A DNA stretch of 64,000 nt, taken from the NCBI GenBank assembly GCA_020632795.1, contig JACKEV010000010.1, positions 159,127-223,126 on the forward strand. Reading direction: 5' to 3'. The DNA comes from Alphaproteobacteria bacterium. GTDB lineage: Bacteria > Myxococcota_A > UBA796 > CAJQPC01. The translations under genes were made by a program, and so were the position numbers. How positions within the stretch are numbered: position 1 is the stretch's first letter; each line of letters starts with the position of its first letter. The notes below the pieces were generated by a model. The model made no database searches. It saw only the letters and a program-made list of their open reading frames with translations, and was not told where the DNA came from. Below are positions 1 through 52,504 of the stretch, one piece after another.

Positions 1-53
1 GTGGTCACTGTGCCCGGGGCCCACGGGCGCTCCGACCTCCCCCAAGCGAGCCG

Positions 54-341: not shown

Positions 342-550
342 CGGCGGAGCCGATCCCTCCAGCGCGCCACGACCTCGTCCTGGGTGACGCCCTGGCCCGC
401 GTCCAGCTCGCGCAGGCCCTGCTGCAGCCCGGCGTCCTGGTCCGAGCTGAAGGGGGCGACGGCGTCCACCGGACGGATCTCGTACCGCCCGGCGGGCAGC
501 TTGCGCAGCTCGTCGGGGAGGTCTTCGCCGTTCCAGTTCAGGACTTCCAT
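338..550 (-). CDS. type II antitoxin partner of ParE (70 aa, Phd/ParD-like addiction-module component)
   Basis: Internal ATG of ORF 338..799(-) at 550 gives MEVLNWNGEDLPDEL...GVTQDEVVARWRDRLRR. It is small and acidic, its C-terminus resembles addiction-module antitoxins, and its stop overlaps the toxin start. Confidence 0.4.
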   Translation of the reverse strand: MEVLNWNGEDLPDELRKLPAGRYEIRPVDAVAPFSSDQDAGLQQGLRELDAGQGVTQDEVVARWRDRLRR

Positions 551-1188
551 AAGGAGAGCGTAGCCGTGAATGGGGGGTGGGTCCAGCCGAACCCACCGAT
601 GGAGGCCGGCGGCTGGGTCAGGGCGTACACGGCGCTGTGGCGCACGAGAGCCGCCGCAGACTCTCCCGACGAACTTGTAAGCGGGCCTTACAGGTTGCTC
701 CGGCCAGTTCCGACGGGAGGGGGTGGCGAGCAGGCCGCTGAGCAAGCCCGACCGACACCGCGAACGCAAACCCTGCGCCTCCTCCCGCTTGCGTTTCACA
801 TGCTGATTATGTCAATACAAGATAGTTGTTAACTACCGCCGCCCGAGAACGCTCCCCTCGGTCGTCGGCAATCCCCAAGGGAGCAAAGTGGGCCCGGCCG
901 AGCTGCAACTCGAACCGGGGTCCTCCAGACCGGCCCGGAGAAGGCTGAATGATGTTCAGCCATCCCCCTGAGAGAGGTCTCAGGACGCCGCCCGCGACGT
1001 CGAAGACGTCCGAAGTGTACCCAACCCCACGGTCTCCGTCCGCCCCGCCCGGACGCACGGGTCCCCCCGACGGCTGAGGCTCGACCACAGCCCTTGCTGA
1101 ACCGGCGCGCCCTCGGGTGCGCCGGAACGGCCCCGCTCGCCCTGCCGGGACGAGCCCCCAAAGACCCCCTTCAACCCAGAGACCCATC

Positions 1189-1482
1189 ATGTGTACCTTC
1201 GACGACTCCGCCGAGTCGCTGGCCGTGCAGGAGCTGTCCAGCCACGCGGTCAGCCTGCACGTCCTCGGCGACAGCCTGGACGCCGCCTTCGAGACCAACG
1301 CCCGCGCCGCCGCGGTCTACCGCGAGCAGTGGTGCCGGGGCGACCACGCGGATCCGCGCCCCGTGCTCGACGCCCACGCGCGGATGTGCGCGCTCATCGA
1401 CCACGCCCAGGCGCTGGCCACCAGCCAGAAGCGCGACCTGGATGAGCTGACCCTCGCGCTCGGGACGAAGCCCCGCGCCTGA
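1189..1482 (+). CDS. hypothetical protein (97 aa)
   Basis: Internal ATG of ORF 1117..1482 with high GC3 (MCTFDDSAESLAVQEL...). No recognisable domain. Confidence 0.25.
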   Translation: MCTFDDSAESLAVQELSSHAVSLHVLGDSLDAAFETNARAAAVYREQWCRGDHADPRPVLDAHARMCALIDHAQALATSQKRDLDELTLALGTKPRA

Positions 1483-1897
1483 CCACGGGCGGGGCGGGCG
1501 GCTTCGGTTCGCCCGCCTCTCCTCACAGGAGTTGTAATGCCCCCCGCCGTCAAGCGAAATCGTCACGGCCTGCGTGGCCCACGACAGTGGGCGCGGCCGG
1601 TCGGCGGCGCTGCGACGGCCAGGACCGCTGTGGCCCCAGGCCCGCCCCTCCCCCCCCAGCCACCGGCTTCGCCGGAGCGGGCTTCCCCAGCGGTCCTGGC
1701 CGTTGACGACGGTGGCATGGCCGACGAGCTTCATAAGCTCTTTGGTTTTATGGGTTTGGGTCACTTGTGGGTGCGCCAGGTTTCTAGTTTGGATAGGTTG
1801 AAGCTTGGAGGCAGACGACTGCGGAATCGAGGTCTTTCGTCCCTCGACGAGTTTGTCGCGGCGCTGCCTCCGTCTACATCAAGAGGTGGGCGGCCTC

Positions 1898-3097
1898 TCA
1901 TACTCGGGCTCGAAGGGCCTCCCGGAGCGCCAGACGGCGTAGATCTGCGCTGCGAACTTCCGCCCGGCCGCGCCACCGGCTGTCCTGCTCGACTTGCCCC
2001 TGCTCGACCTTGCGCCTGTAGAAGGCGCGGACGGGCGCGTTGAACTGCCTCGCGGTGGTCGAGGCGAGGAGGATCTGGAGGCGCAGCATTCGGTTGCCCT
2101 TGCGCACCATGCGCGTGCTGTAGCCCCCGTCTCCGCTGCGCTTCGACCCGGGGTAGAGCCCGCAGTAGCCGATGAACTTGTCGACCGTCGCGAAGCGGTG
2201 GGGATCACCGGCTTCGGCCAGCAGGACGGCGAGCGTGAGCTCTCCGACCCCTGGGATGGTCAGCAGAACGTGGTCCTGGCGTGCTCTCTCATGCGTGCGC
2301 CTGGATGAGCGACTCCAGCTCCTGGACGTCCTCGTAGCAGCGACGGATCGCGCGGGTGAGTTGCACGACCGTCTGCTGCACGATCCGCGACCAGTGTGGC
2401 TCAAGCGTCATGGTGGCCAGCTCCTGCAGCCGCTGGAGGTGTTTCAGGCGAACTCGGCCCCCTGGGAGTCCGCAGCTCCGCCAGGTCGGCCTCGGTGGCC
2501 GCCAGCAGCCGCTCAGGCGAAGGGAAGGCCTCCAAGAGCGTGCTCAGCCACAAGGGGTCTTCCCCGAAACCGGCGCGTGAAGCCGGGGAGCAGCTCGGCC
2601 AAGCGCCGACGAAGGCGGTTGAGCAGGCGCGTCCGCTCCTCCACCAGTGGCGGCGCCGCGTCCGCACTGCCATCGACAGCTCGCCGCAAGCGCTCCGGCA
2701 AGGCCTTCGGCGCTGGCCGGAACGTCCGCAGGTACTGCGCGATGTCGTTGGAGTCCGTGCGGTCGCTGCGAGAGCCCCGCAGCTTCCAGCTTCGTGAACT
2801 GCTTGATGGTCAGGGGTTGAGCTCCACCACCGCCACGCCGCTGCCCTCCAGCGCCACCAGCAGTGGCCGATGGTAGGCCGCTGTCGACTCGCAGCCCAGC
2901 AGCACCGGGCCCTCCAAGGGCTCGATGCTCCTCAGCAGCTCGGCAAAACCCTGCGGGTCGTTCGCGAGCGTCTGGCGGGGCCTCACGGGGCTCCCCGTGG
3001 CGTCGACGTAGACGACGTCAAGCTTCCTGCTGGCGACATCGACGCCGACGAAGGTGCGGGCGGTCTGCTGGACCGCGCTCACGCTCTCCTCGGTCAT
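1898..3097 (-). pseudogene. IS110-family transposase, disrupted (N-terminal DEDD domain 2810..3097, frameshifted middle, C-terminal Transposase_20 domain 1898..2404)
   Basis: N-terminal fragment has FVGVDVASRKLDVVYVD...; C-terminal fragment has IPGVGELTLAVLLAEAGDPHRFATVDKFIGYCGLYPGSKRSGD. Both are hallmarks of IS110 transposases, but they sit on at least three separate minus-strand frames (2810..3097, 2401..2673 / 2513..2701, 1898..2404). Paralogous to the intact copy at 14466..15713. Confidence 0.55.
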
Positions 3098-3349
3098 CGC
3101 TTCTCTCCTTCCTTCTGGGTGGGTGGCGACCCGGGGCTCCGGAGACGCCCACCCCGCCGCTGGCTACTGAATTGCGCAGTCGAAGCCGCATGTTGTAATT
3201 CGCGGGCGTGGGGTGGGCGTCCGGACCGAAACTCCATGACGCGGTCGTGCCGCAAGCCCCCGATTACGGGTGTCCTGGGACGCCGCACCCCACAAAACAC
3301 GTTCACGCTCTCACGGCCCGCCAGGGCCTTGGAGGCATAGTAGACCCCC

Positions 3350-4285
3350 ATGTCCCGCCCCAAGCCCGTCGCCCTGGGCGACGTCCGGCTCAGCGTCGTC
3401 CGAGGCCCCCGCGCCGACGGCCTCTGGTACTGGCGAGCCCGCCGCTCCGGCGCCCGCGACACCTTGTGGTCTGGCTGGGCCACCCGAGAGGAGGCCATCG
3501 CCCAGGCCGAGCGCCTCGTCTCCGATGGCCTGCCCGCGCCCGCGCCCCAGCTCCGCGCCGACACCCTCGCCGAGCTGTTCGCGACCTAGCACGCCCACCA
3601 GCACGCCCGCCACGACCTCAGCCCCGAGACCATCCTCAGCTACGACAAGGCCCGCCGACACCTCTCCGCGCTGCTCGGCGACCTCCCGCCTGACGCCCTC
3701 GACCGCCCCAGGGTGGAGGGCTACCGCAACGATCGCCTGGGCGAAGGTGCCTCGCCCCGGCTGGTCGCCCTGGAGCTGCGCGTCCTGCGCATCGCCTGGA
3801 TCTGGGCGGTCGAGGCCGGGCTCGTGCCGGACCGCCCGCTGCCCTCGGTCCGGGTGAAGGTCCAGGGCTTCGTCATCAACCACCGCACGCCGCGCCCCGA
3901 GGAGGTCGTGCGGGTGCTCGACGTGCTGCGCGGCGAACACCGGCTGGCCGTGCTCCTGCTCGCGACGACGGGGGCGAGGATCTCGGAGGTGGCCCAGCTT
4001 CGGCGCTGCGATATCCAGCCTCGGACGGGTCGGCTGACCCTGCGCGGTAAGACGGGCACGCGGAGCTTCCCCCTGCCCGAAGCCGTTCTCGCGCTGCTCC
4101 TCCCTCGCGCGGAGCAGACCGAGGCCCCGCTGCTCGCCATCGAGGGCCGACACCGCGCCGAGGCCATCCGCTCCGCGCTCCGGCGCGCGTGTCGCCGGGC
4201 CCAGGTCCCGCGCTTCACCCCGCACGGACTGCGCCGTATGGTCGTCGACCAGCTCATCCGCGCGGGCGTGCCCGACGGACCTGCG
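3350..4285 (+). pseudogene. tyrosine recombinase/integrase copy A, inactivated (in-frame TAG at 3587-3589; C-terminal catalytic region replaced by an IS66 insertion near 4275)
   Basis: ORFs 3350..3589 and 3713..4594 are in the same frame and together align residue-by-residue with integrase copy B (PKP..VRLS..GPR.DG.WYWRARR, LRGKTG, TPHGLRRMVVDQ). Similarity ends after RAGV, before the catalytic Tyr. Confidence 0.6.
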
Positions 4286-4286
4286 G

Positions 4287-4580
4287 TTGGGGTTCGCGGG
4301 GCTGGCGGGGCTGGTCCAGCAGGAGATGGGGCGGGAGCTGGTGTCGGGGGAGCTGTTCCTGTTCGTGTCGAGACGGAGGACGTCCGCGAAGATCCTGCAC
4401 TGGGACGGGACGGGGCTGTGTCTGTACAGCAAGCGACTGGCCGGCCGGCGGCGATTCGCGGCGCTGTGGGAGCGCGCGGAGCGCGGTCAGGTGCGGCTGA
4501 CGATGGCCGAGCTGGCGCTGTTCCTGGAGGGGGCAGAGGTCAGCCGGCGGCGAGCGTCAAGGTTGTCGATCATTCGCTGA
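4287..4580 (+). CDS. tnpB: IS66 Orf2/TnpB-like accessory protein, N-terminally truncated (TTG start)
   Basis: GELFLFVSRRRTSAKILHWDGTGLCLYSKRLAGRRRF matches the IS66 TnpB core (LF.F.NRR.D..K.L.WDG.G..L..KRLE.G.F). Confidence 0.5.
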   Translation: MGFAGLAGLVQQEMGRELVSGELFLFVSRRRTSAKILHWDGTGLCLYSKRLAGRRRFAALWERAERGQVRLTMAELALFLEGAEVSRRRASRLSIIR

Positions 4581-4597
4581 TTGTATTGCTTTAAATT

Positions 4598-6393
4598 GTG
4601 CAATTGGTTACATATGTGGGCATGAAGCCTGCGCCTGTTCGCTCCAACACCCCCGGATCTCCAGACTCTGCTGCGCGACCTCGCGGCCGCCGAGGCCCGC
4701 GCGGCGGAAGCCGAGGCGTTCGCGGACGCGGCGCGGCAGCGCGCCGACGACGCCGAGGCCCGCGCCGAGCTCCTCGACGTGAAGGTGCAGGCCCAGGAGA
4801 AGCTGCTCACCGCGTCGATGGCGCAGATCGCCTCGCTGACCCGTCGCCCTGGCCGAGGCGACCAGCCGCCCCTGAGCAGCTGGCCCTGGAGTTCGAGATG
4901 CGCGCGGTCCAGCGCCGGCTCGCGGATCTGCAGCGCGAGCGCTTCGGGCAGACCTCCGAACGGCGCGGCTGCCCCGAGGGGAGCCCGCCCAAGGCGAAGC
5001 CCGAGCCGAAGCCGAAGACGGGCCACGGTCCCACGCCCCAGCCGGACCTGGAGCGTGTCCCACAGATGCACCTGCTCGATCAGGCTGATCAGGTCTGCCC
5101 CGCTGCGCGCCTCCTCGTCCGCTGGAGCCCTGGGTCGGCAAGACCTCCGACGCCGAAGAGGTCACCGTCATCGAGCGCACGTTCCGGATCACGGTGCACA
5201 GACGACAGCTCTATCGCTGCGGGGGCTGTGGCCACATCGAGACCGCGCTGGGGCCGCCTCGGCTCATCCCCGGCGGGCGCTACGCCCCCGAGTTCGCCGT
5301 CGCCGTCGCCGCCGACAAGTACGTCAACGCCCAGCCCCTGGCCAGCCAGGTGCGCGAGATGGCCGACCAGGGGCTCCGCGTCACGACACAGACGCTGTGG
5401 GAGCACTTCCGGTCTGGAGGACCAGGCGCTCTACGTGCTGATGCTGCCCACCTACCTCATGCTCCAGAAGCAGATCCTCGATCAGGACGTCGTCTTCGTC
5501 GACGAGACCTCCTGGCGCCTCATGAAGAAGGGCGGCACCCGCCGCTGGTGCTGCTCCACAGCGGGGCTGGGCGCTCACCGACGGTCGGCGCGCCTTCTTC
5601 CAGCTCGCCCCGACCCGAGGCCAGGCTGCCGCCCGGGAACTCCTCCAGGACTACGACGGCGTGGTCATGGCCGACCGCTATGTCGTCTACGAGGCGCTGG
5701 AGAAGGAGCGCTCCCGCAACGGCGGCCAGCAGACTGTGCTCCGCCTCGACGACGACACCCCCCTGCTGCTCCCCACCCCGGACTACGACCTCGCCGCGTG
5801 CTGGATGCACGGACGCAGGGGCTTCGTCAAGGCCGAGCGGCACGGCGAGCCGGACGCCGACACCGCCCTGGATCTCATCGCAGAGCTCTACGCCGTCGAA
5901 GCCCTCGCCCGAGAGCAGGTCGCCGACATCGTCGACCCCGAACAACGCCAGGCCGCCCTCCTCGACGCCCGCCGTGTGCTCCGGGACACCCGCTCCCGGC
6001 CCGTCCTCCAACGCCTCCGCGCCTGGCTCGATCAGGTCGTCGCCGTGCCCACCCTGCCCCTCGACAAGGCCGTCCGCTGGCTCGACAACGGCTGGACCCA
6101 GCTCATCCGCTTCCTCGACGACCCCCGCATCCCCCTCGACAACGGCCTCGCCGAGCGCGTCATCCGAGGCGTCGTCCTCGGCCGCAAGACCTACGCTGGC
6201 TCCCGCTCCGAGAAGGGCGCCAAGCCGCCGCGGAGCGGTTGCTGCGCTCTTCTACAGCATCGTCGAGAGCTGCCGCCTGGAGGGCGTCGACCCCAGGGCC
6301 TTCATGAACGAAGCCGCCCGCCGAGCCCTCCTGGAGCGCGACGCCGCCTTCCTCCCTGAGGACTTCAAGCAGATGCTCGACGCCGACGGCTGA
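4598..6393 (+). pseudogene. IS66-family transposase (TnpC), multiply frameshifted
   Basis: IS66 TnpC motifs are spread across three frames. These are the leucine-zipper/RERFGQTSER region, CGGCGH zinc finger, VVFVDETSWRLMKKGGTRRW, ACWMHGRRGFVKA, DNGLAERVIRGVVLGRKTYAGSRSEKG and the C-terminal SIVESCRLEGVDPRAFMNE. The relevant ORFs are 4598..6307, 5194..6393 and 5661..6359. Confidence 0.6.
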
Positions 6394-6536
6394 GCTGGGC
6401 GGCTGAGGGCGGGGCGAGGTGGCCATCGGCCGGATGTAGGTCGGGGGACGGGCTCGTGGGAGGGGTGGTGGGGCGAGGATGTACGGAAGGCCAGCAACAC
6501 CGGGCCTTTGTGGACCCAGGAGGAGGGATCTCTGTC

Positions 6537-6887
6537 ATGACGACCCGAGCACAGCCGACGTCCGGCAACCGCTTCGTCCGCGCGGCCCGGCCCCGCGCGC
6601 GCACAGACGCCAGCGGCCAGCGCCTCCGCCGCCTGCACGTCCGCGCGGCGCTGTACGCGAGCCCCGAGACCCTCTGCACCGCCAAGGAGTTCGCCGGGGT
6701 GATGGTGCTTCGCGAGGCCACCGCCCAGAAGCTCCAGCCCGCCGGCTTGCGCCCAATGGGGCGCAGCAAGCGCGCCCCCTTTCGATGCTGGCTGGCCGCG
6801 CTCGACGGCGAGCCCGTCGTCCACGATGCCGTCCCCATCGAGCATCCCATACCCCAGCGCTCCAGGAGGCCGAAGCGCTCGACCTGA
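6537..6887 (+). CDS. AlpA/excisionase-family small DNA-binding protein (putative Xis for integrase B)
   Basis: Internal ATG of ORF 6456..6887. LCTAKEFAGVMVLREATAQKL...GRSKRAPFRCWLAALDG resembles the AlpA/Xis HTH pattern (T.KE.A...GVS..T...L...G..P.P.K.G.R...W....WL). It lies immediately upstream of the integrase. Confidence 0.4.
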   Translation: MTTRAQPTSGNRFVRAARPRARTDASGQRLRRLHVRAALYASPETLCTAKEFAGVMVLREATAQKLQPAGLRPMGRSKRAPFRCWLAALDGEPVVHDAVPIEHPIPQRSRRPKRST

Positions 6888-7097
6888 CGGAGCCTCACCC
6901 CCCTCGGCGGCCCCGCCCGTCGTTGACCCAAGGAGACACAGATATCCAAGAAGAACCGACCCAAGCCCGCCGAGGTCGGTGAGGTCCGCCTCAGCGCCAT
7001 CAAGGGTCCCCGCAGCGACGGGGCGTGGTACTGGCGCGCCCGCCGCAAGCGCCAGCGGGACACCCTCTGGACCGGCTGGGCCACCCGGGACGAGGCG

Positions 7098-8039
7098 ATG
7101 GAGACCGTCGCCCGCCTCATCGCCAGCGGCCTGCTGGAGCGGGAGGACCCCCGGCCCAGCACCCGCACGATGCACGATCTCCTGGACCTCTGGCTGGAAC
7201 AGCAGGAGCGCCGCCGGGACCTGAGCCCACAGTCCGTCAAGAACTACACCCGCTGCTGCCGTCACGCCGTCGCGTGGCTGGGAGAGCTTCGCCCCGACGA
7301 CCTCGGGCGGCTGACCCTGGAGCGCTACCGCAACCAGCGCCTGGGCGAGGGTGCGGCCCCCCGAACCATCCAGCAGGAGTTGATCGTACTGCGCATGGCA
7401 TGGCGCTGGGCCGGGGACGCCGGGCTCATCCCGGATCGGGCGCTTCCTTCGGTGAAGATCAAGGTCCAGGGCTATGTGGCGAATCACCACACGCCGAGCC
7501 CTGCCGACGCCGCGCGGGTCATCGCGCTGCTCGACGGGGAGGATCAGCTCGCCGCGCAGCTCCTGGCCACCACTGGGGCGCGCGTCTCCGAGGTCACCGG
7601 CCTCAAGCGCTGTGACGTCGACCCCCGGACCCGGCGGGTCACCCTGCGCGGCAAGACCGGGGCCCGGGTCTTCCCCCTGCCGGAGCCGATCTTCGCGCTG
7701 GTGGCCGATCGGATCGACGGCTCGGCGCGGCCGCTGTTCGACTGGACGACCTCTGTGCCGGGATCGCGGGTTCGTGTGGCGCTCCAGAAGGCGTGTCTGC
7801 GCCTCGGGGTGCCCGTGTTCACGCCCCACGGGCTGCGTCGCATGGTCGTGGACCAGATGATCCGCTCGGGCGTAGACGTCTCGACGGCGGCCAGCCTGAC
7901 CGGGCACAGCGTAGAGGTTATGCTGCGGCACTACCGCAAGGTCAGCGAGGCCGACCGGGTCGAGGCGGTGGCGAAGGCGGGGCTGGGGGTGCTGGGCGGC
8001 AAGGTCATCGAGGGGCCGTGGGCGAAGGCTGGGGGGTAA
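7098..8039 (+). CDS. tyrosine site-specific integrase copy B (intact catalytic domain: R..HxLRR..Y)
   Basis: GARVSEV, TPHGLRRMVVDQMIRSG and LRHYRKV motifs are present. The conserved N-terminal arm (KNRPKPAEVGEVRLSAIKGPRSDGAWYWRARR) lies in-frame upstream, from 6927, with no canonical start codon; it is AAG where copy A has ATG. The true start is therefore ambiguous (6927 to 7098). Confidence 0.7.
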   Translation: METVARLIASGLLEREDPRPSTRTMHDLLDLWLEQQERRRDLSPQSVKNYTRCCRHAVAWLGELRPDDLGRLTLERYRNQRLGEGAAPRTIQQELIVLRMAWRWAGDAGLIPDRALPSVKIKVQGYVANHHTPSPADAARVIALLDGEDQLAAQLLATTGARVSEVTGLKRCDVDPRTRRVTLRGKTGARVFPLPEPIFALVADRIDGSARPLFDWTTSVPGSRVRVALQKACLRLGVPVFTPHGLRRMVVDQMIRSGVDVSTAASLTGHSVEVMLRHYRKVSEADRVEAVAKAGLGVLGGKVIEGPWAKAGG

Positions 8040-8560
8040 GCGCCCGGCTGGATGAGCGTTCAGGATATTTTGTGTTCCATCGAGCCCTGACAAGCTCCAT
8101 TCTTTCAAGATCCCGGGATCCTGGTCTCTTGATCGTCCCGCTTCCACGGGCCAGACTGCCTGCAGCGGCCCGAGGCCACCGGGCAACGACTGGAGGACCC
8201 CGTGGACGAACGCTTCGCGTTCGAAGGCCTGCGCTGCGCCTTCGACGCCATCCATCGCTTCGCCGATGATATCGGCTACCTCGTGCTCTACGACCGGACG
8301 CCGCCCCGACGGGAGGAGGTGCTCGGGCGCCTCGACGTGGAGCGGCCTGGTCGACGCCTACGCGCGGAGGAGGTCTGCGCCTGGGTCCGGGACACCGCGC
8401 AGCGCAACGCCCTCGGGGAGGAGCGCTGTCGCTTCAGGCTCCGACTGAACGCCCCCAAGAGCTTGCGGCCGGTTGCCGGGCCGACGGCGGGCGCGCCCTT
8501 CGTCGTCGCGAGGGTGATTGGCCATCACGTCACCTTCGATGACGTGCCCTGGTCGGCCAG

Positions 8561-9496
8561 GTGCTCCAGCTCCCCGAGGCGTGGACGGGCGTGGCCCCGG
8601 ACGGCTCCTGCGAGCAGCCCGCCGAGGTCGCCGAGGTCAGCACCGCCCAGCAGCTCGGGCAGGCGGCGGGCGGCGCCTGGAACGCCGTCGAGGGCGCGGC
8701 GGGGGACTTCGTCAACACGGCCACCGACCAGAGCGCAGAGCTGTGGGCCTGGCTGTTCGGCGAGGACGCGGGGCCCGACCTGGGCGAGTGCGCCGGCCCC
8801 GAGGTGGAGCTGGAGACCCTGTTCACGAGCGAGCGGCTGAACGCCCAGCAGATCGCCGAGGCCCGCACGCTGATCGCTCAGCTCCCCGAGGCCGACCAGG
8901 GCGCCTGGTACGAGCAGCTCCAGGGCAAGGTGCCCTACCACAACCAGCGGAACAACGAGTCCCCCAACGAGGGGGAGAGCGGGGGCACCTGCAACCTCAC
9001 CGCGCTGGCGATGTGCCTGGAGTACCTGGGCGTGGCCAACCCCCGCCCCGAGATGCAGTTCGAGGACGCGCTGGACCAGCTCCGGATCGAGCAGAACCTC
9101 GGCCCGCTGGCGAGCTGGAACACCTGGAACCTGCTCGCCCAGCACCTGGGCAAGCGCATCGAGTTCCGCGACGCCGGCAAGCACGACCAGGCGTGGTTCG
9201 AGTCCACCCTGAAGGGCTGGCTCCAGGGCGATGGGGTGCTGTGCTCCATCGCAGGGCACGTCGTCCGCATCCAGGGCATGAACGAGGACGGCCTCGTCGT
9301 GGACGACCCCTACGGCCTCTCGATCCTCCGGCCCCGCTCCAACGGCAAGCCCTACTCCTGGGCGCCCAAGGGCCGGAATGGCTACAAGGAGCACGGCGTC
9401 GACGGCACCCACGAGACGAACCTGGGTGAGGACATGGTGTGGCCCTGGGCGGACGTCGTGAAGTACAACTTCCCCACCTTCGGAGTCGTCAAGTGA
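8561..9496 (+). CDS. papain-fold cysteine peptidase, C39-like (Peptidase_C39_2/BtrH-like) domain protein, 311 aa
   Basis: Catalytic Cys motif GESGGTCNLTALAMCLEYLG (G.C...LAM.L.Y.G) is followed by a His in SIAGHVVRIQG, giving the papain-like Cys-then-His order. GC3 is very high. GTG start; no signal peptide. Confidence 0.6.
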   Translation: MLQLPEAWTGVAPDGSCEQPAEVAEVSTAQQLGQAAGGAWNAVEGAAGDFVNTATDQSAELWAWLFGEDAGPDLGECAGPEVELETLFTSERLNAQQIAEARTLIAQLPEADQGAWYEQLQGKVPYHNQRNNESPNEGESGGTCNLTALAMCLEYLGVANPRPEMQFEDALDQLRIEQNLGPLASWNTWNLLAQHLGKRIEFRDAGKHDQAWFESTLKGWLQGDGVLCSIAGHVVRIQGMNEDGLVVDDPYGLSILRPRSNGKPYSWAPKGRNGYKEHGVDGTHETNLGEDMVWPWADVVKYNFPTFGVVK

Positions 9497-10014
9497 ACCT
9501 CCCCTACCCTGCTGCTCTCCTGCTCTCGCTCCTGCTCACCGGCTGCTCCGGGGACAGCGCGCCGCCGGCCCAACCCGCGCCCGCCCCCCAGGCCGCCCCG
9601 GTCGAGCCGGCACCCGCCCCGGCGGCTCCCCCAGCCCCGGACCTGTGGAGCGACGACTGCAAGACCTGGGCGGGCTTCGAGGTGCCGATCCAGGACAACG
9701 AGGGCATGGCCTCCGCGAAGCTCGCCAAGGATCAGCTGGCCGAGGGCCCCTGCAAGCCGGGCGAAGCCCCGAAGGGAGCGGACAGCTTGATCGTCGTCAT
9801 CGAGCACGCCAAGGTGGAGGACAGCAGCCCCCTGAACCGCGCCTACGAGCAGCGGGCTGAGGCCGCCGGCTGGAAGCGGACGAGCCCGCCCGATCACCTC
9901 CCGCGCTTCGAGCACGCTGACCACCCGGGGTGGGTGCTCACGATGGACGGCCACCTGGACGAGGAGGGCGGGGGCTTCCTGGAGCTGCACTTCATCGTCA
10001 AGCCGAAGGGGTGA
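9493..10014 (+). CDS. lipoprotein (173 aa), translationally coupled to the upstream peptidase
   Basis: GTG start overlaps the peptidase stop (GTGA). N-terminus VNLPYPAALLLSLLLTGCSGDS is a lipoprotein signal with an LTGC lipobox. Confidence 0.5.
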   Translation: MNLPYPAALLLSLLLTGCSGDSAPPAQPAPAPQAAPVEPAPAPAAPPAPDLWSDDCKTWAGFEVPIQDNEGMASAKLAKDQLAEGPCKPGEAPKGADSLIVVIEHAKVEDSSPLNRAYEQRAEAAGWKRTSPPDHLPRFEHADHPGWVLTMDGHLDEEGGGFLELHFIVKPKG

Positions 10015-10310
10015 GCCCACCCGAGACCCCCGAACTGCTCGCCCAGGCCCTGCGCCGCTCCTCGAACTGGACCTGGGTGTCCGGCATGCTCATCGTCTAC
10101 GGCAACGGCCGCCGCGCCCTCTACCGAGGCGTCGTCGACGGCCCCGGCGAGGCCCTGCCCGTACTGAAGCACGACGCCACCGCCGGGTGCCTCATGGGCC
10201 TGCTCGCGGAGACCGGGCCAGGCTGGCAGGCGGTGCTCACCGAGGAGATGGCCCGGGGCGGGGACTGGAGGCTGGCGGTGGCGCGGGCGCTGTGGAGGCA
10301 GTGGAGGTAG
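10011..10310 (+). CDS. small hypothetical protein (99 aa), third gene of the coupled module
   Basis: GTG start overlaps the lipoprotein stop (GTGA). Good GC3. No recognisable domain. Confidence 0.3.
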   Translation: MSPPETPELLAQALRRSSNWTWVSGMLIVYGNGRRALYRGVVDGPGEALPVLKHDATAGCLMGLLAETGPGWQAVLTEEMARGGDWRLAVARALWRQWR

Positions 10311-10319
10311 GCGAGTTCG

Positions 10320-10655
10320 ATGCCGCTTGTCACAATCTGTCCGCTCGTGCCATATAGAAGTGGAGCCCCGTCGGGTCCCTCACGCTCGTTGACATCCATA
10401 GAGAAGAACGCTCGACTCAACGGTCCGCTCCGGCACCGCGAATCTGCGAACCTCTCCCACTCCGCGATATGGCAGGTTCAGCCGTTGAGGTTCTCTGAGG
10501 TCTCATACAGCGCGATAGTTCTAATCAAAGGTGATGTATCAACGACTCCGGTTTCCCGAGGTGTTGGCTGCGTCAAGAGCTGGAGAAGCCCGGAGGTCGA
10601 GGTTCGCAAAACCTGTTGGATTCGACCGGCGATATCAGGTAGTTGGAGAGCAAGG
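10320..10655 (+). promoter_or_regulatory. putative CRISPR leader for array 1 (AT-richer than surroundings)
   Basis: GC content drops locally immediately upstream of the first, consensus, repeat. The degenerate repeats are at the far (3') end of the array, so the leader is expected on this side. Confidence 0.35.
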
Positions 10656-10991
10656 GTCCCGGGACCCCGCCCGTCACGGAGGGCATTGAAACGACTGTAT
10701 TGTTTGTCCACAGCAAAAAATGCCTGCCTCCGTCCCGGGACCCCGCCCGTCACGGAGGGCATTGAAACACGTCGTCCTGCCAGGCAGTGATTCGTACGAT
10801 CCAGGTCCCGGGACCCCGCCCGTCACGGAGGGCATTGAAACCTCCTTGTAGAGTGGATGTTTTCTGAATTGAGGACCAGGTCCCGGGACCCTGCCCGTCA
10901 CAGAGGGCATTGAAACTGTGGCGTAATACGCCACGGGGATTTCGAAGATGTCCTGTCCCGGGACCCTGCCCGTCACAGAGGGCATTGAAAG
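10656..10991 (+). CRISPR. CRISPR array 1: five 37-bp repeats GTCCCGGGACCCCGCCCGTCACGGAGGGCATTGAAAC and four spacers (36-39 bp); no adjacent cas genes
   Basis: Repeats start at about 10656, 10732, 10805, 10880 and 10955. The first three are identical. Repeat 4 has two substitutions, and repeat 5 shares these plus a terminal G in place of C. The 3' end ATTGAAAC/G matches the Cas6-generated 8-nt crRNA 5' handle, fixing + strand orientation. Spacers are unique and AT-richer than the genome. Confidence 0.9.
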
Positions 10992-10997
10992 AGCCGA

Positions 10998-11016
10998 ATC
11001 AGCAATCATTGCTGAT
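10998..11016. repeat. perfect palindrome ATCAGCAAT-C-ATTGCTGAT directly after the last CRISPR repeat
   Basis: 9-1-9 inverted repeat read directly from the sequence. It could be a hairpin/terminator or a terminal structure of the IS. Confidence 0.4.
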
Positions 11017-13020
11017 CAGGCCACTTTCCCCTCCGAGTCGCCAACCTGCGCCTCCAGGCGTCACAGTGACAGTAGAATCGCCCATAAAATCGGTATCTTT
11101 CGCGCCCTCCCCAGAATTGGACACAGACCTCCCCCAACCCCCAGCGTCCGTCGAAGGAGACGCGGTCAGGCCGCGTGGGCGGCAGGCGGGCCGCGCCCCA
11201 TGAGGCCCTCGACGAAGGCGCGTGCGTCGAGTTTGGAGACCCAGGCGCGGGCGTGCTGGAGCAGGGCGAGGAGGTTCAGGCGGATGAGCCAGAAGGACCA
11301 GCGACGGTGGCGGGCGGCTTCGAGCTTGAGCTTGCTCTTCTTCTCGTCGTTGGAGCGCTCGCAGCCGGTGCGCTTCTTGTAGAGCTTGCGGTATCCGGCG
11401 CTGTTCCGTGCGATGAGGGGGAACAGGCGGGGGTTGTCGTGGACGTTCATGTTGAGGACGGGGCCCCACTTCGTCTCGGGTTGACAGCGCCAGTCGGGCT
11501 CGCCGTCCGGGGCCAGGGGACAGCGTTCGAGCTTGTTGGCCTTGACGGGGCAGAGGAAGACGCTCTGGTTGGGCCCGCCGGTGCCCCAGGCGGCCATCTC
11601 GGCGCCGGCCTGGCACAGTGGGATGGCGCGAGGGCTCAGGGCGATGTCGGGTCGGGTGGGGTGGACGGCGGGCACGTCGGAGCGCAGCGGGATGACCGGC
11701 CGCATGCCCCAATCCATCGCGTGGGCGTGGTTGGCGCGGGCGTCGTGGCCGGCATCGGCGATGAAGACGGAGAGGCCGAAGCGGTGGCGCTCATCACGGA
11801 GGAGCTTGCCGAGCTGCTCGATGGCCAGGGCACAAGCGCGGTGCTCGCTGTGATCCGCAGGGTCCAGGCGGACCAACAGCGGGAGGTCGTGTCCGTCGAC
11901 CGGGGCGAGCAGCTCGTAGGAGTGGTAGCCGAAATCGTAGCGGTCTCGGTAGGCGTCGTAGCCGCGCTTCGCGTCGGGGTCGGACCAGACCCGATCGTGG
12001 TCGCAGCGGGCGGTCCGGGGACACGAACAGACGCGGCGACCGTGGCCGTTGGCGGCGGTGACCAGCGGGCTGGCGTCCCCTGCGACGATGAGGGCCTCGA
12101 TGTCCTCCAGCAGCCCACGGCGCACAGAGACCTCCACCCCGCAGGTCCACAGGATGCGGGTCAGGCGGCCCAGCAGGTCGTCGGGGTTGCCGGAGCTCCG
12201 GCGGGCCCGGAGCGCGTCGACCAGCTTCGCGGTGGCGTTCTTCTCCGGCTTGCCCTTGCGGCGCTCCCAGCCGGGCTGGGCGCTCTCGGCGCGCCGCCGC
12301 TCCAGCGCGCTGGGGCGAATGGCGACCCCCTCCCGAAGTGGCCCGTCGTGAAGACGGTGGAGGAAGCTGTAGAACGCGCCGATGCTCGGGGACGGGGCGC
12401 GGCGGCGTCCGGGCTCGGGTTCGGCCAGGCCGGCGATGGCCTGGAGCACCGGCTCGGCGCGCAGCCGATGGCCCCAGGCGTTGAGCGCGGGCTCCCCGAC
12501 CAGCGGACCGAGCAGCAGGCAACGCAGCATGACCACCGGGTCCCAGGGCTCGCCGCCGCGGGGGCTCGGCGCGTAGCAGGCCTCCAGGACCGGCCGCGCG
12601 GGCTCCAGCTCGAGGAACCACAGCGTCGTCAACGCGGACGCGTAGAGCCGCAGCTTGTCGCGAAGGTCCGGGCGCCCAGCGAGGGCCTGAAGGCGGGAGA
12701 GGACGAGGTCGTGATAGCATGAGGATGGAGGGGGCGTCATCGTTCTTTTTCGATTTAATTAGGTTTGAAGCGGAGAATTCCGCTGTTTCGATGATCGCCC
12801 CCTTTTCACGCATCGCCAAGCTCAAGGCGGGCTGGGGCGGGCTCGGTGCAGACTCGGTGCCGGCGAGGCGCGCGAATGGTAATCGGTGGGGTCATGATGG
12901 GCCGATGCGGGTTGAGGCGGATGTGACGGGTGGGGTGAAGGGGAGGAATGTCAGGGGGTTGGGATTGGTGATCGGGGTCTTGAAACGTAGTAGCAGCTGT
13001 AAAGACCTGTCGTATCGTAC
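11000..13020 (-). mobile_element. insertion sequence carrying the IS4/IS5-type transposase, inserted between the two CRISPR arrays (boundaries approximate)
   Basis: A relic array-1 repeat at 13021-13048 on the far side of the transposase gene implies insertion into a formerly continuous array. Terminal IRs and target-site duplications could not be defined by eye. Confidence 0.35.
11166..12740 (-). CDS. IS4/IS5-superfamily DDE transposase (524 aa)
   Basis: C-terminal Y-(2)-R-(3)-E-(6)-K signature is present (YKKRTGCERSNDEKK). The Asp residues of the DDE motif lie in VFIADAGHD and DFGYHSYELLAP contexts. Uninterrupted ORF with good GC3. Confidence 0.7.
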   Translation of the reverse strand: MTPPPSSCYHDLVLSRLQALAGRPDLRDKLRLYASALTTLWFLELEPARPVLEACYAPSPRGGEPWDPVVMLRCLLLGPLVGEPALNAWGHRLRAEPVLQAIAGLAEPEPGRRRAPSPSIGAFYSFLHRLHDGPLREGVAIRPSALERRRAESAQPGWERRKGKPEKNATAKLVDALRARRSSGNPDDLLGRLTRILWTCGVEVSVRRGLLEDIEALIVAGDASPLVTAANGHGRRVCSCPRTARCDHDRVWSDPDAKRGYDAYRDRYDFGYHSYELLAPVDGHDLPLLVRLDPADHSEHRACALAIEQLGKLLRDERHRFGLSVFIADAGHDARANHAHAMDWGMRPVIPLRSDVPAVHPTRPDIALSPRAIPLCQAGAEMAAWGTGGPNQSVFLCPVKANKLERCPLAPDGEPDWRCQPETKWGPVLNMNVHDNPRLFPLIARNSAGYRKLYKKRTGCERSNDEKKSKLKLEAARHRRWSFWLIRLNLLALLQHARAWVSKLDARAFVEGLMGRGPPAAHAA

Positions 13021-13048
13021 GTCCCGGGACCCTGCCCGTCACGGAGGG
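13021..13048 (+). repeat. relic fragment of the array-1 CRISPR repeat (28/28 match to the degenerate array-1 variant GTCCCGGGACCCTGCCCGTCACGGAGGG)
   Basis: Direct sequence match. It lies 14 bp upstream of the first array-2 repeat. Confidence 0.6.
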
Positions 13049-13062
13049 AGGCAAGCCCGGCT

Positions 13063-13389
13063 ATCCCTCTCCCCGCTCGTCGGGGAGCCTCATTGAAGCG
13101 GATTCAGCCTGGATGCGGCGGCGCTCCCGGACGACGTCCCTCTCCCCTCTCGTCGGGGAGCCTCATTGAAGCGTCATCAGTCGTCGTCGGACAGCGCGGC
13201 CTTGGGGGTCCCTCTCCCCGCTCGTCGGGGAGCCTCATTGAAGCGGATTCAGCCTGGATGCGGCGGCGCTCCCGGACGACGTCCCTCTCCCCGCTCGTCG
13301 GGGAGCCTCATTGAAGCTTCACGATGGCGTCGAAGGCGGGGTGGTAGGAGGTGTCCCTCTCCCCGCTCGTCGGGGAGAGAGAACGGGCG
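13063..13389 (+). CRISPR. CRISPR array 2: 37-bp repeats GTCCCTCTCCCCGCTCGTCGGGGAGCCTCATTGAAGC (4 full plus 1 truncated terminal repeat), 4 spacers of 35-36 bp with spacer 1 identical to spacer 3
   Basis: Repeats start at about 13063, 13136, 13208, 13281 and 13353; the last diverges after 25 nt. There is an internal CTCCCC/GGGGAG stem. Both arrays share the 5' GTCCC and the 3' CATTGAA(A/G)C. Spacers 13100-13135 and 13245-13280 are identical. Confidence 0.85.
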
Positions 13390-14399
13390 TTAATTTTCGT
13401 GGCAGATCGTAACGGCGCTTCAAGGAAGCTCCCCGATGAGCGAGGAGCCTCACGGGACCTACTCCTCCCCCACCAGCCCCGCCGCGATCCTCTCGGCCAG
13501 CTCATCCAGCTCCGGTTCGCCGAGCTGCATCAGCACGCTGAGCAGGTAGCCGTCCGCGGTGAGGTACGCCCACCGCACGGCAGCCCGGAGCTGACGCAGC
13601 AGCCGCCTACGCCGCCGCCGCCGCGCCCTCGCATCAAGCGCGACCACCGTGGACCTCCTGCCGCCCCTGGCGGCGCTCCTGGCGCAGCGCGGTGAGCGCC
13701 GGGTGCTGGACCAGGCGCAGCACATCGGCCGCCAGCATGGCGACCCCGAGCGCGGCGGCCAGGGGGCTCTCAGCCCCGGCGAGGGCGCGCAGGGACTCCT
13801 TCAAGGCGAGGCCGTGCTCGTCCCAGGCGGTGTTCCAGGCGGCGCGGCGTTCGGATGCGGTCCTCATCGGTGGTGTCTCCTCTCCGGGTGGGCTACAGGC
13901 AGTCCATCGTCTTCGGACGGTCTCTCGGTGTTGGGAGGAATCCCCCTCCCCCTCTCGGCGCCGACTGCGGCCCCATCGCCTCGTGGCGGTGGGGTCGAAG
14001 CGCTTCAGGGGGCACGGCGAAGGGGCGGCCGGCGCGGCTGAGCGCGGCCGGCGGGCGCAGGAGGCCCTCGGGGTGGTCCTCATGTAGCCCCCAGGATGTC
14101 AAGGTCCCGCTTGTCGAGCATCGTCTCATCGCTGCAGGGGGAGGGGTTCGGGGAAGGGGGGCACGCCCCCCTCCCCGTACGCAGCGAGTGCATGGCTGCG
14201 AACCGGTGTGGGTGTCGTGGGCCGAGCCTCGCGACGAGGATGTTCGGGGGAGTTCCCTCCCGCCTCGCCCTCATACGTTCAGGGTCGTCAACCGAGGCGG
14301 CCGCGCCCTCAAGATCCTTCATCCAGGCGAGGAGGGAACCGGGAGGTGACTTGTTCTCACTCTCGAGGTCGCTGCCAGGGCGCCTCCAAGGGTCGTCAG

Positions 14400-15800
14400 C
14401 CTCCCTCCCGGGTCCCCGAACGGGTCCATGTCGCAGCAGGCACGCAGTGGCCTCCAGCGGGTGGCTCAGCTCATGATCCTCGCTGCGTCGAAGAAGGCAC
14501 CGTCGCGCACCAGGGCGTGCATCACACGCACGAGTCGGCAGGCGTTGGCGAGGACGGCCTTCTTGGGGATGACCTTGGCGTCGAGCATGCGGGCGCGTGG
14601 TCCTGCCAGCGCATCCATGCCCATGCGCAGCGAGGCCAGGTACAGCACCTGGCGCAGGTAGCGTCGGCCCCTGCGGCTGATGATGCGGCTGGGCTCCACG
14701 TCCTCTGCGGGCTTGTTGCCAGAGGAGACCTCGACCAGATCGAGGCCCGCCATGGACATCAGCTGACGACTGTGCCGGTAGCCCCGCAGATCGCCGAACT
14801 CGCCCAGCAGGATGGCGGTCGTCGTGGCTCCAAGACGTGGGATCGACAGGAGGTTGGGGGCGTAGTCCACCTGCTCCAGGCGGCCCACCATCTCGGCCTC
14901 GATGGCGCACCTGCTGGCGGTGAGCTGGTCCAACTCGTCGAGGTGCTGCATCAGCACAGCGCGGTGCCCCCTCGCCCCATCGCGGATCCCCACCGAGCGC
15001 TTCGCGGCCGCTCGGAGCGCGTCCACCCGCTCCTCGCCGAGGTTGTGGTGACTGGCCTTGTGCAGTCCCTTGATCAGCGTGCGGCGGCGCGCCGCGAGGA
15101 CCTCCTCCGGCGTCGGCACCGTCCGCAGCCACCACAGGCAGGCCGGCGAGTCCATCTTGCCGAACAGCTTCGGCAGCTCCGGGAACAGCACGTCCACATG
15201 CCGGTGGACCCGGTTGAGCACCTGGCTCCGACGCTTCACCATCTGCTCCCGCGTGCGACCCAACAACCGCAGCTCCGCAAACACGCCCTGCGGCGGACGC
15301 CACGGCTTCGCCTTGCCCTGACGGCAAAGATCCGCCACCAGCGCCGCGTCCTTCGCGTCCGTCTTCCGCCACGTCCCGTCGTACAGCTCCTTCGCTCGCT
15401 TCGTATGCAACGGCTGCACCTGGAACAGCTTCACCCCCCGCTCCGACAGCCAGCGTGCCAGCGCCTCGCCGTAGTGGCCCGTCGGCTCGAACCCCACCAC
15501 GAACTCCGTGTACCGCTCCACCTCCCGAACCGCCTCCTCGCAGTACCTCCACAGCGCGCTGAACCCCTCGACGTCGTTCGTGAATCTCTCCGGCTTCGCC
15601 ATCCAACCGTCGTCCAGTGCCGCCACCGCGACGTGATTCCACTTCGCTACGTCTACTCCGATCACCGCCTGGTGTGGCAGGGTAGGCTGCCAACGTCGTC
15701 GGCTCCTTCGCATGTGCTCTCCTCGGCCTCGTGGGCCTGCTCGTCGTTTTCCAACAAACAGGATCCCACTCCGGGAGGGCACATGCCTGGGGGGCTGGGC
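14400..15800 (-). mobile_element. IS110-family insertion sequence (boundaries approximate; IS110 elements lack classical terminal inverted repeats)
   Basis: A single transposase gene is flanked by short non-coding stretches. Ends are not defined. Confidence 0.3.
14466..15713 (-). CDS. IS110-family transposase (intact)
   Basis: N-terminal VIGVDVAKWNHVAVA (DEDD domain) and C-terminal LLSIPRLGATTTAILLGEFGDLRGYRHSRQLMSMAGLDLVEVSSGNK (Transposase_20) are present. The start was moved to the internal ATG at 15713 because a GGAGAG Shine-Dalgarno sits 5 nt upstream. The longer ORF begins at 15782. Confidence 0.75.
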   Translation of the reverse strand: MRRSRRRWQPTLPHQAVIGVDVAKWNHVAVAALDDGWMAKPERFTNDVEGFSALWRYCEEAVREVERYTEFVVGFEPTGHYGEALARWLSERGVKLFQVQPLHTKRAKELYDGTWRKTDAKDAALVADLCRQGKAKPWRPPQGVFAELRLLGRTREQMVKRRSQVLNRVHRHVDVLFPELPKLFGKMDSPACLWWLRTVPTPEEVLAARRRTLIKGLHKASHHNLGEERVDALRAAAKRSVGIRDGARGHRAVLMQHLDELDQLTASRCAIEAEMVGRLEQVDYAPNLLSIPRLGATTTAILLGEFGDLRGYRHSRQLMSMAGLDLVEVSSGNKPAEDVEPSRIISRRGRRYLRQVLYLASLRMGMDALAGPRARMLDAKVIPKKAVLANACRLVRVMHALVRDGAFFDAARIMS

Positions 15801-15812
15801 CCCATAGGATTC

Positions 15813-16517
15813 TCACCCGAGCACCAGCTCCTCAACAGGCACCACCTGGACCCGGACGGCCAGGGGCACCGTGATGGTCCCCGCGCTCTCCGCGCTGTAC
15901 GTCGTCGAGGGCTTCACCCCGATGTGCAGCCACGGGGTCGAGCTGAGGTCCAGGTCCACGCCCCGCGCCCCGGCCCCGGGAACGATGTCCCCCTGGCAGC
16001 TCGTAGCGTCGTGGATGTCGCCCTGGATGCTGCACAGGGTCGTCAGGTCGTCGCTCAGGTGGAGCCGGACGAGGACCCGGCGGGTGCTCGCGTGCTGGGC
16101 GAGGTCGGCGGTGGTGTTGTAGCCCCCGTGGTTGTTGATCCCGGAGGTGTTCTTCTTGATGGACCACAGCCCGGCCATGTTGGGCATGCCCGAGGTCAGG
16201 TCGTCGGTGCCGGCGACCACCACGGCCAGGGTCCGCCCGTCGTTCGCGATGCTGCCGGGCAGCTCCAGCTCCAGGAGCAGCACGGCCGGGCCGGCGGGGA
16301 GGAGCCCGCTCAGGTCGTACCGGACCCAAGCCCACTCGCCGGGGGCGCTGGCGGGGACGTCCGAGGTGCCCTTGCTGCTGTCCGTGTAGGCGACCTCGCG
16401 GCTGCTCCAGGCCGTGTCCCGCTGGGTGTTGTAGGGGACGACGTCGGCCCCCAGGTCCACCTCGGTCCAGCCGGGCGGCTCGATGGCGGGGTCGACCCGC
16501 CCGTAGTGCCCGCCCAT
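15813..16517 (-). CDS. hypothetical protein (234 aa), second gene of a two-gene operon
   Basis: Its ATG overlaps the stop of the upstream gene (ATGA at 16515-16519). High GC3. No recognisable domain. Confidence 0.4.
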   Translation of the reverse strand: MGGHYGRVDPAIEPPGWTEVDLGADVVPYNTQRDTAWSSREVAYTDSSKGTSDVPASAPGEWAWVRYDLSGLLPAGPAVLLLELELPGSIANDGRTLAVVVAGTDDLTSGMPNMAGLWSIKKNTSGINNHGGYNTTADLAQHASTRRVLVRLHLSDDLTTLCSIQGDIHDATSCQGDIVPGAGARGVDLDLSSTPWLHIGVKPSTTYSAESAGTITVPLAVRVQVVPVEELVLG

Positions 16518-16855
16518 CAGGTGTCCCGGCGCTGGGCGATGAGGGTGACGTCGGCCGTCCCCGACGGCGCGGCGACCAGCACGTAGCCGGCGCGGATGCT
16601 GGTGCGCTCGCTGAGCGGGTAGGTCGGCCCCGCGTTGGCGGGGACGGGCTCCGCGTTGTCGGCCGCCTCAACCGTGCCCCCGTCGTCCTTGCCGCTGTCC
16701 GGCCAGGCCACGTAGAGCGCGGCGCTGGAGACGATGACGACCTCGTTGGCGCCGCCCTCCGGGAAGTTGAAGCGCTGGTAGGTGGTGGAGACGCTCGTCT
16801 CTCGGGCGGTCGAGGGGTTGACCGTGGCGCTGGTCAGCGTGGTGTTGGTGGCCAT
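16517..16855 (-). CDS. hypothetical protein (112 aa), Thr/Ser-rich N-terminus
   Basis: MATNTTLTSATVNPSTARETSVSTTYQRFNFPEGG... Coding-like GC3. Translationally coupled to the downstream gene. Confidence 0.4.
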   Translation of the reverse strand: MATNTTLTSATVNPSTARETSVSTTYQRFNFPEGGANEVVIVSSAALYVAWPDSGKDDGGTVEAADNAEPVPANAGPTYPLSERTSIRAGYVLVAAPSGTADVTLIAQRRDT

Positions 16856-17128
16856 GTGGGCTCCTGGTGGTGATGGGGAGCCCCCACGGCCGCAGCCCCG
16901 GGGGCTGAAGACCCCGGGGTGATGGGCGGTGGTGAAGGGGAAGAGGGCGGCAGCGAGGGAGGCCGGCGCGCGGCGGGCCCGGGGGGCTGGCGGCGGGAGG
17001 CCGGGCCGGGGGCCGGGCTGGGGGCCGGCGCGCGGCGGGCCGAGGAGACACCCACAGCCTGGAAGGTCCGCCGACGGGGCAGAGCGGACGTGAGGCGGCT
17101 CGGGATGGACGCCTGCGCGGGCAGCCCT

Positions 17129-39998: not shown

Positions 39999-40078
39999 CG
40001 CCCCCCCCGAGGCCCTCGGAGGTGCTAAGGTCACCCGGCGAGGGGCTCGACGCCCCGTGGTGAACAAGAGGGTGAAGC

Positions 40079-41977
<1,899 letters not shown>

Positions 41978-50677: not shown

Positions 50678-52504
<1,827 letters not shown>

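Follow-up and report, generated by a model that had tools for sequence, protein, structure and literature searches.

A 64,000-nucleotide (nt) stretch of contig JACKEV010000010.1 (positions 159,127 to 223,126 of the forward strand; assembly GCA_020632795.1, named Alphaproteobacteria bacterium and placed by GTDB in Myxococcota_A), referred to below as the window, carries between its positions 8561 and 10310 three overlapping genes encoding a papain-fold peptidase, a lipoprotein and a protein of 99 amino acids (aa). The first two probably form an orphan cassette of warhead plus immunity protein that belongs to a polymorphic-toxin family, in which a C39-like peptidase would act on murein peptides and a periplasmic lipoprotein would be its inhibitor. 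The core idea of an initial annotation of the window, that of a candidate effector/immunity cassette, is thereby upheld: relatives of the peptidase are found in fusions with RHS/Tc, eCIS_core or muralytic domains, the genes downstream of them mostly carry export signals, and the lipoprotein is kept beside the closest peptidase homologue, P0002. The cassette belongs to an already described toxin class and is not a new kind of system. Its components are the following:

8561..9496, plus strand: 311-aa C39-like papain-fold cysteine peptidase, putative peptidoglycan-cleaving toxin domain (Pfam, alignment, AlphaFold2); residues 1-58 disordered, helices at 80-121, then the catalytic core; catalytic residues Gln129, Cys144 (codon 8990-8992), His233 (9257-9259) and Asp248/249 (9302-9307)
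9493..10014, plus strand: 173-aa lipoprotein, putative cognate immunity protein; lipobox LLTG-C18 (9544-9546), Pro/Ala-rich linker, C-terminal domain with two conserved cysteines (C56, C87); GTGA overlap with the peptidase stop
10011..10310, plus strand: 99-aa ORFan, translationally coupled to the lipoprotein gene; third-position GC (GC3) 0.92-0.97; no signal peptide

The peptidase and its coupled genes

All three open reading frames (ORFs) begin with GTG, and both junctions consist of a GTGA start/stop overlap (9493-9496 and 10011-10014). GC3 is high in the respective frames, at 0.95-1.00 for the peptidase, 0.90-0.97 for the lipoprotein and, as listed, at similar values for the 99-aa ORF, indicating that all three are real coding regions, and identical three-gene calls are present in the public annotation and in an independent Logan assembly. 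The arrangement of overlapping genes initially described is confirmed. The 99-aa gene had been counted as part of the same module, of which it is not a conserved member: its product matched only itself among 5.8 billion proteins, has no homologue in related loci L001-L009, and gave no Pfam or NCBIfam match; neither this protein nor the lipoprotein matched a PHROG.

The peptidase contains the sequences GGTCNLTALAMCLEYLG and AGHVV, and its N terminus, MLQLPEAWTGVAPDGSCEQPAEV..., lacks a hydrophobic signal segment. Its match to Pfam Peptidase_C39_2 (PF13529) spans profile positions 2-143 of 143 and, at 25.2 bits (E 2.6e-5), lies just above the cut-off of 24 bits, the scores of its relatives ranging from 20.1 to 51.8 bits; the earlier description of a papain-fold, C39-like peptidase without a signal peptide is therefore accurate. 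The only other Pfam match at E<=1 was a sub-threshold one to DUF7553, with no Tae4, CHAP or NlpC/P60 profile, and NCBIfam gave none. A word-indexed search of the 5.8 billion proteins yielded only 14 clusters of homologues. The alignment of 14 homologues shows no variation at Q129, R130, C144, N145 and D248/D249, and almost none at H233, which is absent from a single homologue that has a deletion at this place; the window peptidase accordingly possesses the papain-type Cys, His and Asp residues characteristic of both Peptidase_C39_2 and the catalogued toxin domain Tox-PL-C39.

An AlphaFold2 model built on the homologue alignment is confident over the core (residues ~80-257 and 286-311, mostly with a predicted local distance difference test (pLDDT) score >90) and disordered over residues 1-58. 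Foldseek searches of the PDB listed first the C39 double-glycine peptidase domains of peptidase-containing ATP-binding cassette transporters (PCAT; template-modelling score normalised to the target, 0.71); a pseudomurein endoisopeptidase is regarded as the nearest solved structure. A sequence search of the PDB with the family profile returned nothing relevant. Among the viral models of BFVD, the five best matches (E 1e-5 to 3e-4) comprised three cyanophage endolysins or lysozymes and two unnamed entries. The peptidase also has a weak PHROG endolysin match and remote homologues in three cyanophage genomes.

The second gene product starts with MNLPYPAALLLSLLLTGC, in which a hydrophobic segment leads into the lipobox (...ALLLSLLL-T-G-C18). 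The lipobox, assessed by inspection and a hydropathy rule, is retained in both homologues as LSLGC and LGLGC, consistent with the original assignment of this protein as a lipoprotein. One of the homologues is encoded directly downstream of, and overlapping, the gene for P0002 (40% identity over 122 residues, E 1e-23). An exhaustive HMMER search of 1.84 billion representatives returned only two real relatives, one of which was the query itself and the other P0018, also a lipoprotein. The lipobox and the two cysteines are common to all three members, namely the window protein, the P0002 partner and P0018. A match to the NCBIfam model 'T6SS immunity lipoprotein' (E 0.07) was discarded, as it covers the signal peptide only.

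Relatives of the peptidase and their partner genes

A pattern scan using one genome per species yielded 50 loci, distributed over Myxococcota, Chloroflexota, Deinococcota, Cyanobacteria, Bacteroidota, Actinomycetota, Planctomycetota and spirochaetes, with two metagenome-assembled genomes (MAGs) holding two copies of the peptidase apiece. The peptidase domain is located at or near the C terminus in all 50 loci. Toxin-delivery scaffolds precede or surround it in L043 (SpvB, TcdB and RHS repeats, followed by the domain), L047 (Lipase_3, eCIS_core, Phage_lysozyme and the domain) and L031 (two eCIS_core domains, the peptidase domain and Colicin_D), and it forms part of giant proteins of 1,900-3,500 aa in L050 and L053. 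Elsewhere it is joined to Glucosaminidase (L020, L024, P0011), to SLT and LysM (L022), to LysM (L032), to PG_binding_1 (L013, L015, L017, P0008) or to SH3_3 (P0006, P0007, P0009). Peptidoglycan peptidases are typically marked by such repeated, independent fusions to modules that cleave glycans or bind murein, which suggests that the substrate of the window enzyme is the peptide bonds of peptidoglycan.

Many relatives carry at their N terminus a motif of the type '...LQRTxGNRAVQRML' (read by eye), and in six loci from unrelated genomes (L014, L015, L020, L024, L031 and L052; e.g. L020 12087-14267) the peptidase gene adjoins one for a protein of ~700 aa that has a CDC48-type AAA+ module at its C terminus. 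Cross-locus clustering recognised no structural genes of an extracellular contractile injection system (eCIS) within 10 kb of the relatives and, besides the AAA+ ATPase, no recurring secretion-related neighbours, no scan there being aimed at genes of the type VI secretion system (T6SS). The ATPase is possibly a cargo loader similar to Afp15/Alg15, located away from any recognisable eCIS operon. The N-terminal motif, the AAA+ neighbour and the eCIS_core marker together indicate that part of the family is plausibly eCIS cargo.

Two features of these loci are recorded in their own right. In L031 (7971-11354), a single protein of 1,127 aa has two eCIS_core domains, the C39-like peptidase, whose active-site motif is at residue 545, and at its C terminus a Colicin_D tRNase domain; it is a predicted compound toxin with one warhead for the envelope and one for the cytoplasm. 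In four Chloroflexi and cyanobacterial genomes, a pair of small ORFs lies directly 5' of the peptidase gene (L017 8398-9256, L018 951-1836, L019 8485-9343, L036 7283-8144); the one inspected contains the Fic/Doc-like motif HPFTDGNKRTA.

The gene downstream of the peptidase is not of one family in all loci. Lipoproteins of the window type occur only beside the nearest peptidases. The partners of the next-closest peptidases, P0003 and P0005, are related to each other (E 3e-21) and, at the profile level, to the window lipoprotein (hhalign probability 84%, E 7e-6); the P0005 partner has a signal sequence once its start is corrected, and the P0003 partner has none. Among farther relatives, the downstream genes belong to several unrelated families, usually with a Sec or lipoprotein signal. 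By a crude hydropathy rule, 19 of the 40 loci with a candidate downstream ORF have a signal-bearing one; judged by eye, so do ~11 of the 13 low-GC loci with a candidate ORF, in which ORF calls are unambiguous. Toxin/immunity pairs acting in the cell envelope would be expected to look like this, with an exported partner that adjoins and co-varies with a conserved catalytic domain, and we infer that the lipoprotein inhibits the peptidase. In L053, the signal-bearing partner (10583-11260) has an NCBIfam match to the discoidin-like 'NADase-type glycan-binding' domain (E 1.7e-22), a fold that would be unusual in an immunity protein; the L056 partner (10687-11352) clusters in the same family.

In the mechanism that we propose, the peptidase would cut the peptide part of peptidoglycan through its Gln-Cys-His-Asp active site. 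The co-translated lipoprotein would be exported and anchored so as to face the periplasm, where it would bind and block the peptidase, sparing the owner and its kin. In relatives, the catalytic domain would serve as the C-terminal warhead of RHS/Tc-type or eCIS-type cargo, or act beside glycan-cleaving and murein-binding modules. The window copy has no export signal and only a short disordered N terminus, no machinery for delivery was found among the window ORFs scanned, and the copy lies at a rearrangement breakpoint (~8459-8560) in a region rich in insertion sequences (IS) and integrase genes; for these reasons we take it to be a displaced, presumably orphan, warhead-plus-immunity pair. Its maintained role could be chiefly immunity, or it could be a reservoir from which recombination supplies a full-length toxin gene.

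A more far-reaching version, which we regard as doubtful, would make the sub-family a previously uncharacterised group of peptidoglycan-cleaving endopeptidase warheads common to RHS/Tc toxins and to eCIS cargo, the latter loaded by the adjacent CDC48-type AAA+ ATPase via the 'LQRTxGNRAVQRL'-type N-terminal signal. The window lipoprotein would then found the first dedicated Tox-PL-C39 immunity family, and the 99-aa ORFan might be a cassette-specific adaptor or a second immunity protein.

Comparison with known systems and alternative explanations

The window peptidase family fits the published description of Tox-PL-C39, a toxin domain already catalogued with C, H and D residues in RHS and PVC-metallopeptidase contexts from Bacteroidetes and Chloroflexi (Zhang, de Souza, Anantharaman, Iyer & Aravind 2012, PMC3482391). 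Shared with it are the C39-related papain-like peptidase with these three residues and the position of relatives at the C terminus of RHS proteins (L043) and of DUF4157/eCIS_core proteins (L047, L031), Bacteroidetes and Chloroflexi again being represented. The Tox-PL-C39 entry does not state a substrate, its row in the toxin table lists no immunity protein, and in the immunity table a C39-like peptidase toxin appears as a partner only under Imm-SuFu (PMC3482391). The present family differs in having partners from several new families of exported proteins or lipoproteins and fusions that point to peptidoglycan, and the window copy differs in being short, stand-alone and devoid of a delivery part.

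The initial annotation had likened the layout to the effector/immunity pairs Tae/Tai of the T6SS. Both include a papain-superfamily cysteine hydrolase acting (here presumably) on murein peptides and a periplasmic (here putative) immunity protein encoded directly downstream, as in Tae1-4/Tai1-4, but the delivery contexts of the relatives are of RHS/Tc and eCIS type. Membership in the Tae/Tai class is not supported, given the Pfam result above and the lack of secretion-system genes, including those for T6SS (VgrG, Hcp, PAAR and core components), eCIS and Rhs, among the window ORFs scanned. The DUF4157/eCIS_core domain is well established as marking eCIS-associated toxins (EATs; Geller et al. 2021, PMC8213781), and a disordered N-terminal sequence together with an AAA+ ATPase is reported to load eCIS cargo (preprint, bioRxiv 10.64898/2026.05.27.728243). 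The relatives resemble EATs in their eCIS_core domains (L047, L031), N-terminal motif and AAA+ neighbours, and the window peptidase resembles them in its disordered N terminus, yet it has neither eCIS_core nor the LQRTxGNRAVQRML motif.

Several further observations weigh against the warhead-plus-immunity interpretation. The window peptidase has no recognisable delivery domain or signal, and no delivery genes were found among the ORFs scanned, so that it may be inactive as a weapon. Eight Chloroflexi and cyanobacterial relatives with PG_binding_1 have no signal-bearing partner gene, the 91-aa partner in L002, next to a close relative, has no signal peptide, and the model of the lipoprotein, predicted from a single sequence, is not confident (pLDDT 55). 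Moreover, the proposed substrate derives from domain association only. A protease toxin/immunity pair directed at a periplasmic or envelope protein or a lipoprotein, instead of peptidoglycan, is an alternative that we consider unlikely.

The cassette might also be the lysis module of a degraded prophage or phage-tail-like element, with the peptidase as endolysin and the proline-rich lipoprotein as an outer-membrane, spanin-like partner. An integrase gene lies directly upstream, the lipoprotein has a Pro/Ala-rich linker, and the viral matches described above (BFVD, PHROG and the cyanophage homologues) are in line with this explanation. We nevertheless judge it distinctly unlikely: the flanks contain only IS elements and CRISPR arrays, with no holin, i-spanin or phage structural or packaging genes found there, and the lipoprotein has a conserved globular domain of 120 residues and no C-terminal membrane segment. 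Partners elsewhere are secreted proteins of 190-370 aa from unrelated families, and the peptidase domain is found after RHS repeats as well, which is a toxin context. The cyanophage endolysins with a C39-like domain, and the pseudomurein endoisopeptidases PeiW, PeiP and PeiR, are only ~20% identical to the window peptidase and, unlike the window cassette, are viral lysis enzymes without immunity partners; the Pei enzymes act on the walls of methanogens, which they lyse by cutting the Ala-epsilon-Lys isopeptide bond (PMC4592898).

A housekeeping enzyme of cell-wall remodelling accompanied by a regulatory lipoprotein, with no role in conflict, would account for the murein-binding domains, which autolysins carry too, and for the absence of the partner gene from some relatives. 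The window protein, however, has no signal peptide, and the family is rare and patchy, with its few clusters scattered over many phyla. The location in an IS/integrase island beside a truncated gene, the RHS, eCIS_core and Colicin_D fusions of the relatives and the hypervariable partner families likewise make a housekeeping role very improbable. Scarcely credible is a C39 peptidase that processes bacteriocin leaders: despite the structural match to PCAT peptidase domains, no ABC transporter is fused or adjacent to the peptidase in the window or in the neighbourhoods of related loci examined, and no double-glycine leader peptide with an ABC exporter was seen near the cassette. The Pfam match is to C39_2, not to the transporter-type C39, and the domain contexts are muralytic or toxin-related. 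Protease/inhibitor pairs of the staphopain/staphostatin type differ as well, staphostatins being cytoplasmic guards against premature activation of a secreted protease, whereas the window partner is an exported lipoprotein and the window protease lacks a signal peptide.

The upstream gene remnant and the mobile-element surroundings

The warhead-plus-immunity cassette is embedded among the following features:

7098..8039, plus strand: tyrosine recombinase (integrase); Pfam Phage_integrase E 4.8e-15, PHROG 1 integrase E 1.2e-46; context, marking a region rich in mobile elements
8202..8459, plus strand: 3'-truncated remnant of an unrelated gene, equivalent to the first 86 residues of a 179-aa protein (paralogue P0015 / H6739_06530); GC3 0.82-0.92
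8460..8560, plus strand: junction between remnant and cassette; an in-frame TGA (8540) closes the peptidase frame 5' of its GTG start
10311-10655, plus strand: putative CRISPR leader, lower in GC (0.63 over 10001-11000); context
10656-10991, plus strand: CRISPR array with five repeats of family D1, the 37-nt repeat ending in ATTGAAAC

Upstream of the peptidase gene, frame 0 stays open between 8133 and a stop at 8838, and its GC3 of 0.82-0.92 is clearly below that of the three cassette genes. The initial annotation had suggested that 8202-8560 is coding sequence set apart from the peptidase gene by a 1-nt frameshift, either a pseudogene or a sequencing error, and that it may once have supplied an N-terminal domain. 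The open, coding-like frame running into the peptidase ORF is real; its interpretation as a frameshifted or pseudogenised fusion is not sustained. An intact 179-aa paralogue, H6739_06530, is encoded on another contig of the same MAG, and tblastn of this paralogue against the window gave 83 identities in 91 positions (91%) over 8202-8474, the near-identical part ending at ~8459. The remaining C-terminal 93 residues of the paralogue are absent from every frame of the window. Because the similarity ends so abruptly and the rest of the gene is missing, 8202-8459 is a 3'-truncated gene remnant at a rearrangement breakpoint. The continued open frame beyond it is a chance outcome in DNA of 70% GC. 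The family of the paralogue is without a match in Pfam, NCBIfam or PHROG, and the 5.8 billion proteins contain no further relatives.

The junction at 8460-8560 shows no homology to P0015 or to the N termini of the peptidase homologues, and tblastn of 13 peptidase homologues against 7001-11000 found nothing significant upstream of 8561; the single high-scoring segment pair of P0002 extends back to 8297, through low-complexity sequence and across the stop at 8540. A frameshifted N-terminal domain was accordingly rejected, as the upstream ORF matches a separate 179-aa paralogue, to ~8459 only, and is unmatched by the homologues. A sequencing error at the junction was rejected too, since the independent Logan contig L001 is identical to the window across 8414-8640. 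An 'AFDAIH' likeness, noticed by eye, between the upstream ORF and the N termini of P0003-5 is not significant (E about 5).

The window peptidase is the shortest member of its family. Only ~29 residues precede its Trp-rich linker, compared with ~215 in P0002, which include the motif 'QQLAGAGNAYVQ', and with so few residues the window copy lacks the presumed delivery region. The suspicion that an N-terminal domain had been lost is thus correct insofar as the copy is without the N-terminal region of its relatives, and incorrect in deriving that loss from a frameshift within 8202-8560. We do not claim the window sequence 'QQLGQAAGGAWNAV' as a degenerate copy of the P0002 motif, the alignment placing it in the Trp-rich linker. 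In L004, a 51-aa ORF on the minus strand (2634-2789), converging on the immunity gene, repeats the N terminus of the neighbouring toxin P0002 (...QQLSGGGNAWVQEQ...), which suggests either that toxins in this Myxococcota MAG share an N-terminal module or that a second toxin gene has been truncated.

The cassette had been placed between an integrase and a CRISPR leader, and both neighbours were found: the integrase match lies at 7098-8039, and on the other side the array beginning at 10656 is preceded by a 345-nt stretch of lower GC in a window of ~70% GC overall. This first array (10656-10991) consists of five 37-nt repeats (GTCCCGGGACCCCGCCCGTCACGGAGGGCATTGAAAC) and is followed on the minus strand by an IS4-like DDE transposase gene (11166-12740), which separates it from a stray degenerate repeat copy at 13017-13057. 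A second array (13064-13377; period 73) has a repeat that differs from that of the first and holds a duplicated 113-nt repeat-spacer unit, the copies being 98% identical. No cas genes were present among the window ORFs scanned, and neither repeat matched Rfam. Further IS sequences include an IS110 fragment (2810-3163), an IS66-family transposase spread over several frames (4598-6393), probably a pseudogene, and an intact IS110 transposase (14466-15812). Positions 1-17000 are a mobile-element graveyard, rich in IS and integrase debris.

A tRNA scan found no gene, and Rfam on 8000-14000 and a promoter scan found nothing. The remaining window ORFs scanned are mostly housekeeping genes, e.g. GrpE-DnaK-DnaJ, an M16 peptidase and an AraC regulator. 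Two Hsp70/DnaK-family genes lie within 10 kb of each other, one (40076-41977) in a grpE-dnaK-dnaJ arrangement and the other (50663-52504) shorter and alone.

Two implications follow, one for annotation and one for the toxin family. An open upstream frame in DNA of 70% GC is not evidence for a frameshift, and here one paralogue search explained such a frame as a truncated gene. If the warhead-plus-immunity interpretation is true, it would give a murein-peptide substrate class and a periplasmic site of action to a toxin domain hitherto known just by its name in a comparative-genomics catalogue, would supply toxin/immunity pairs open to testing, and would illustrate how warhead-plus-immunity cassettes become stranded in IS-rich islands.

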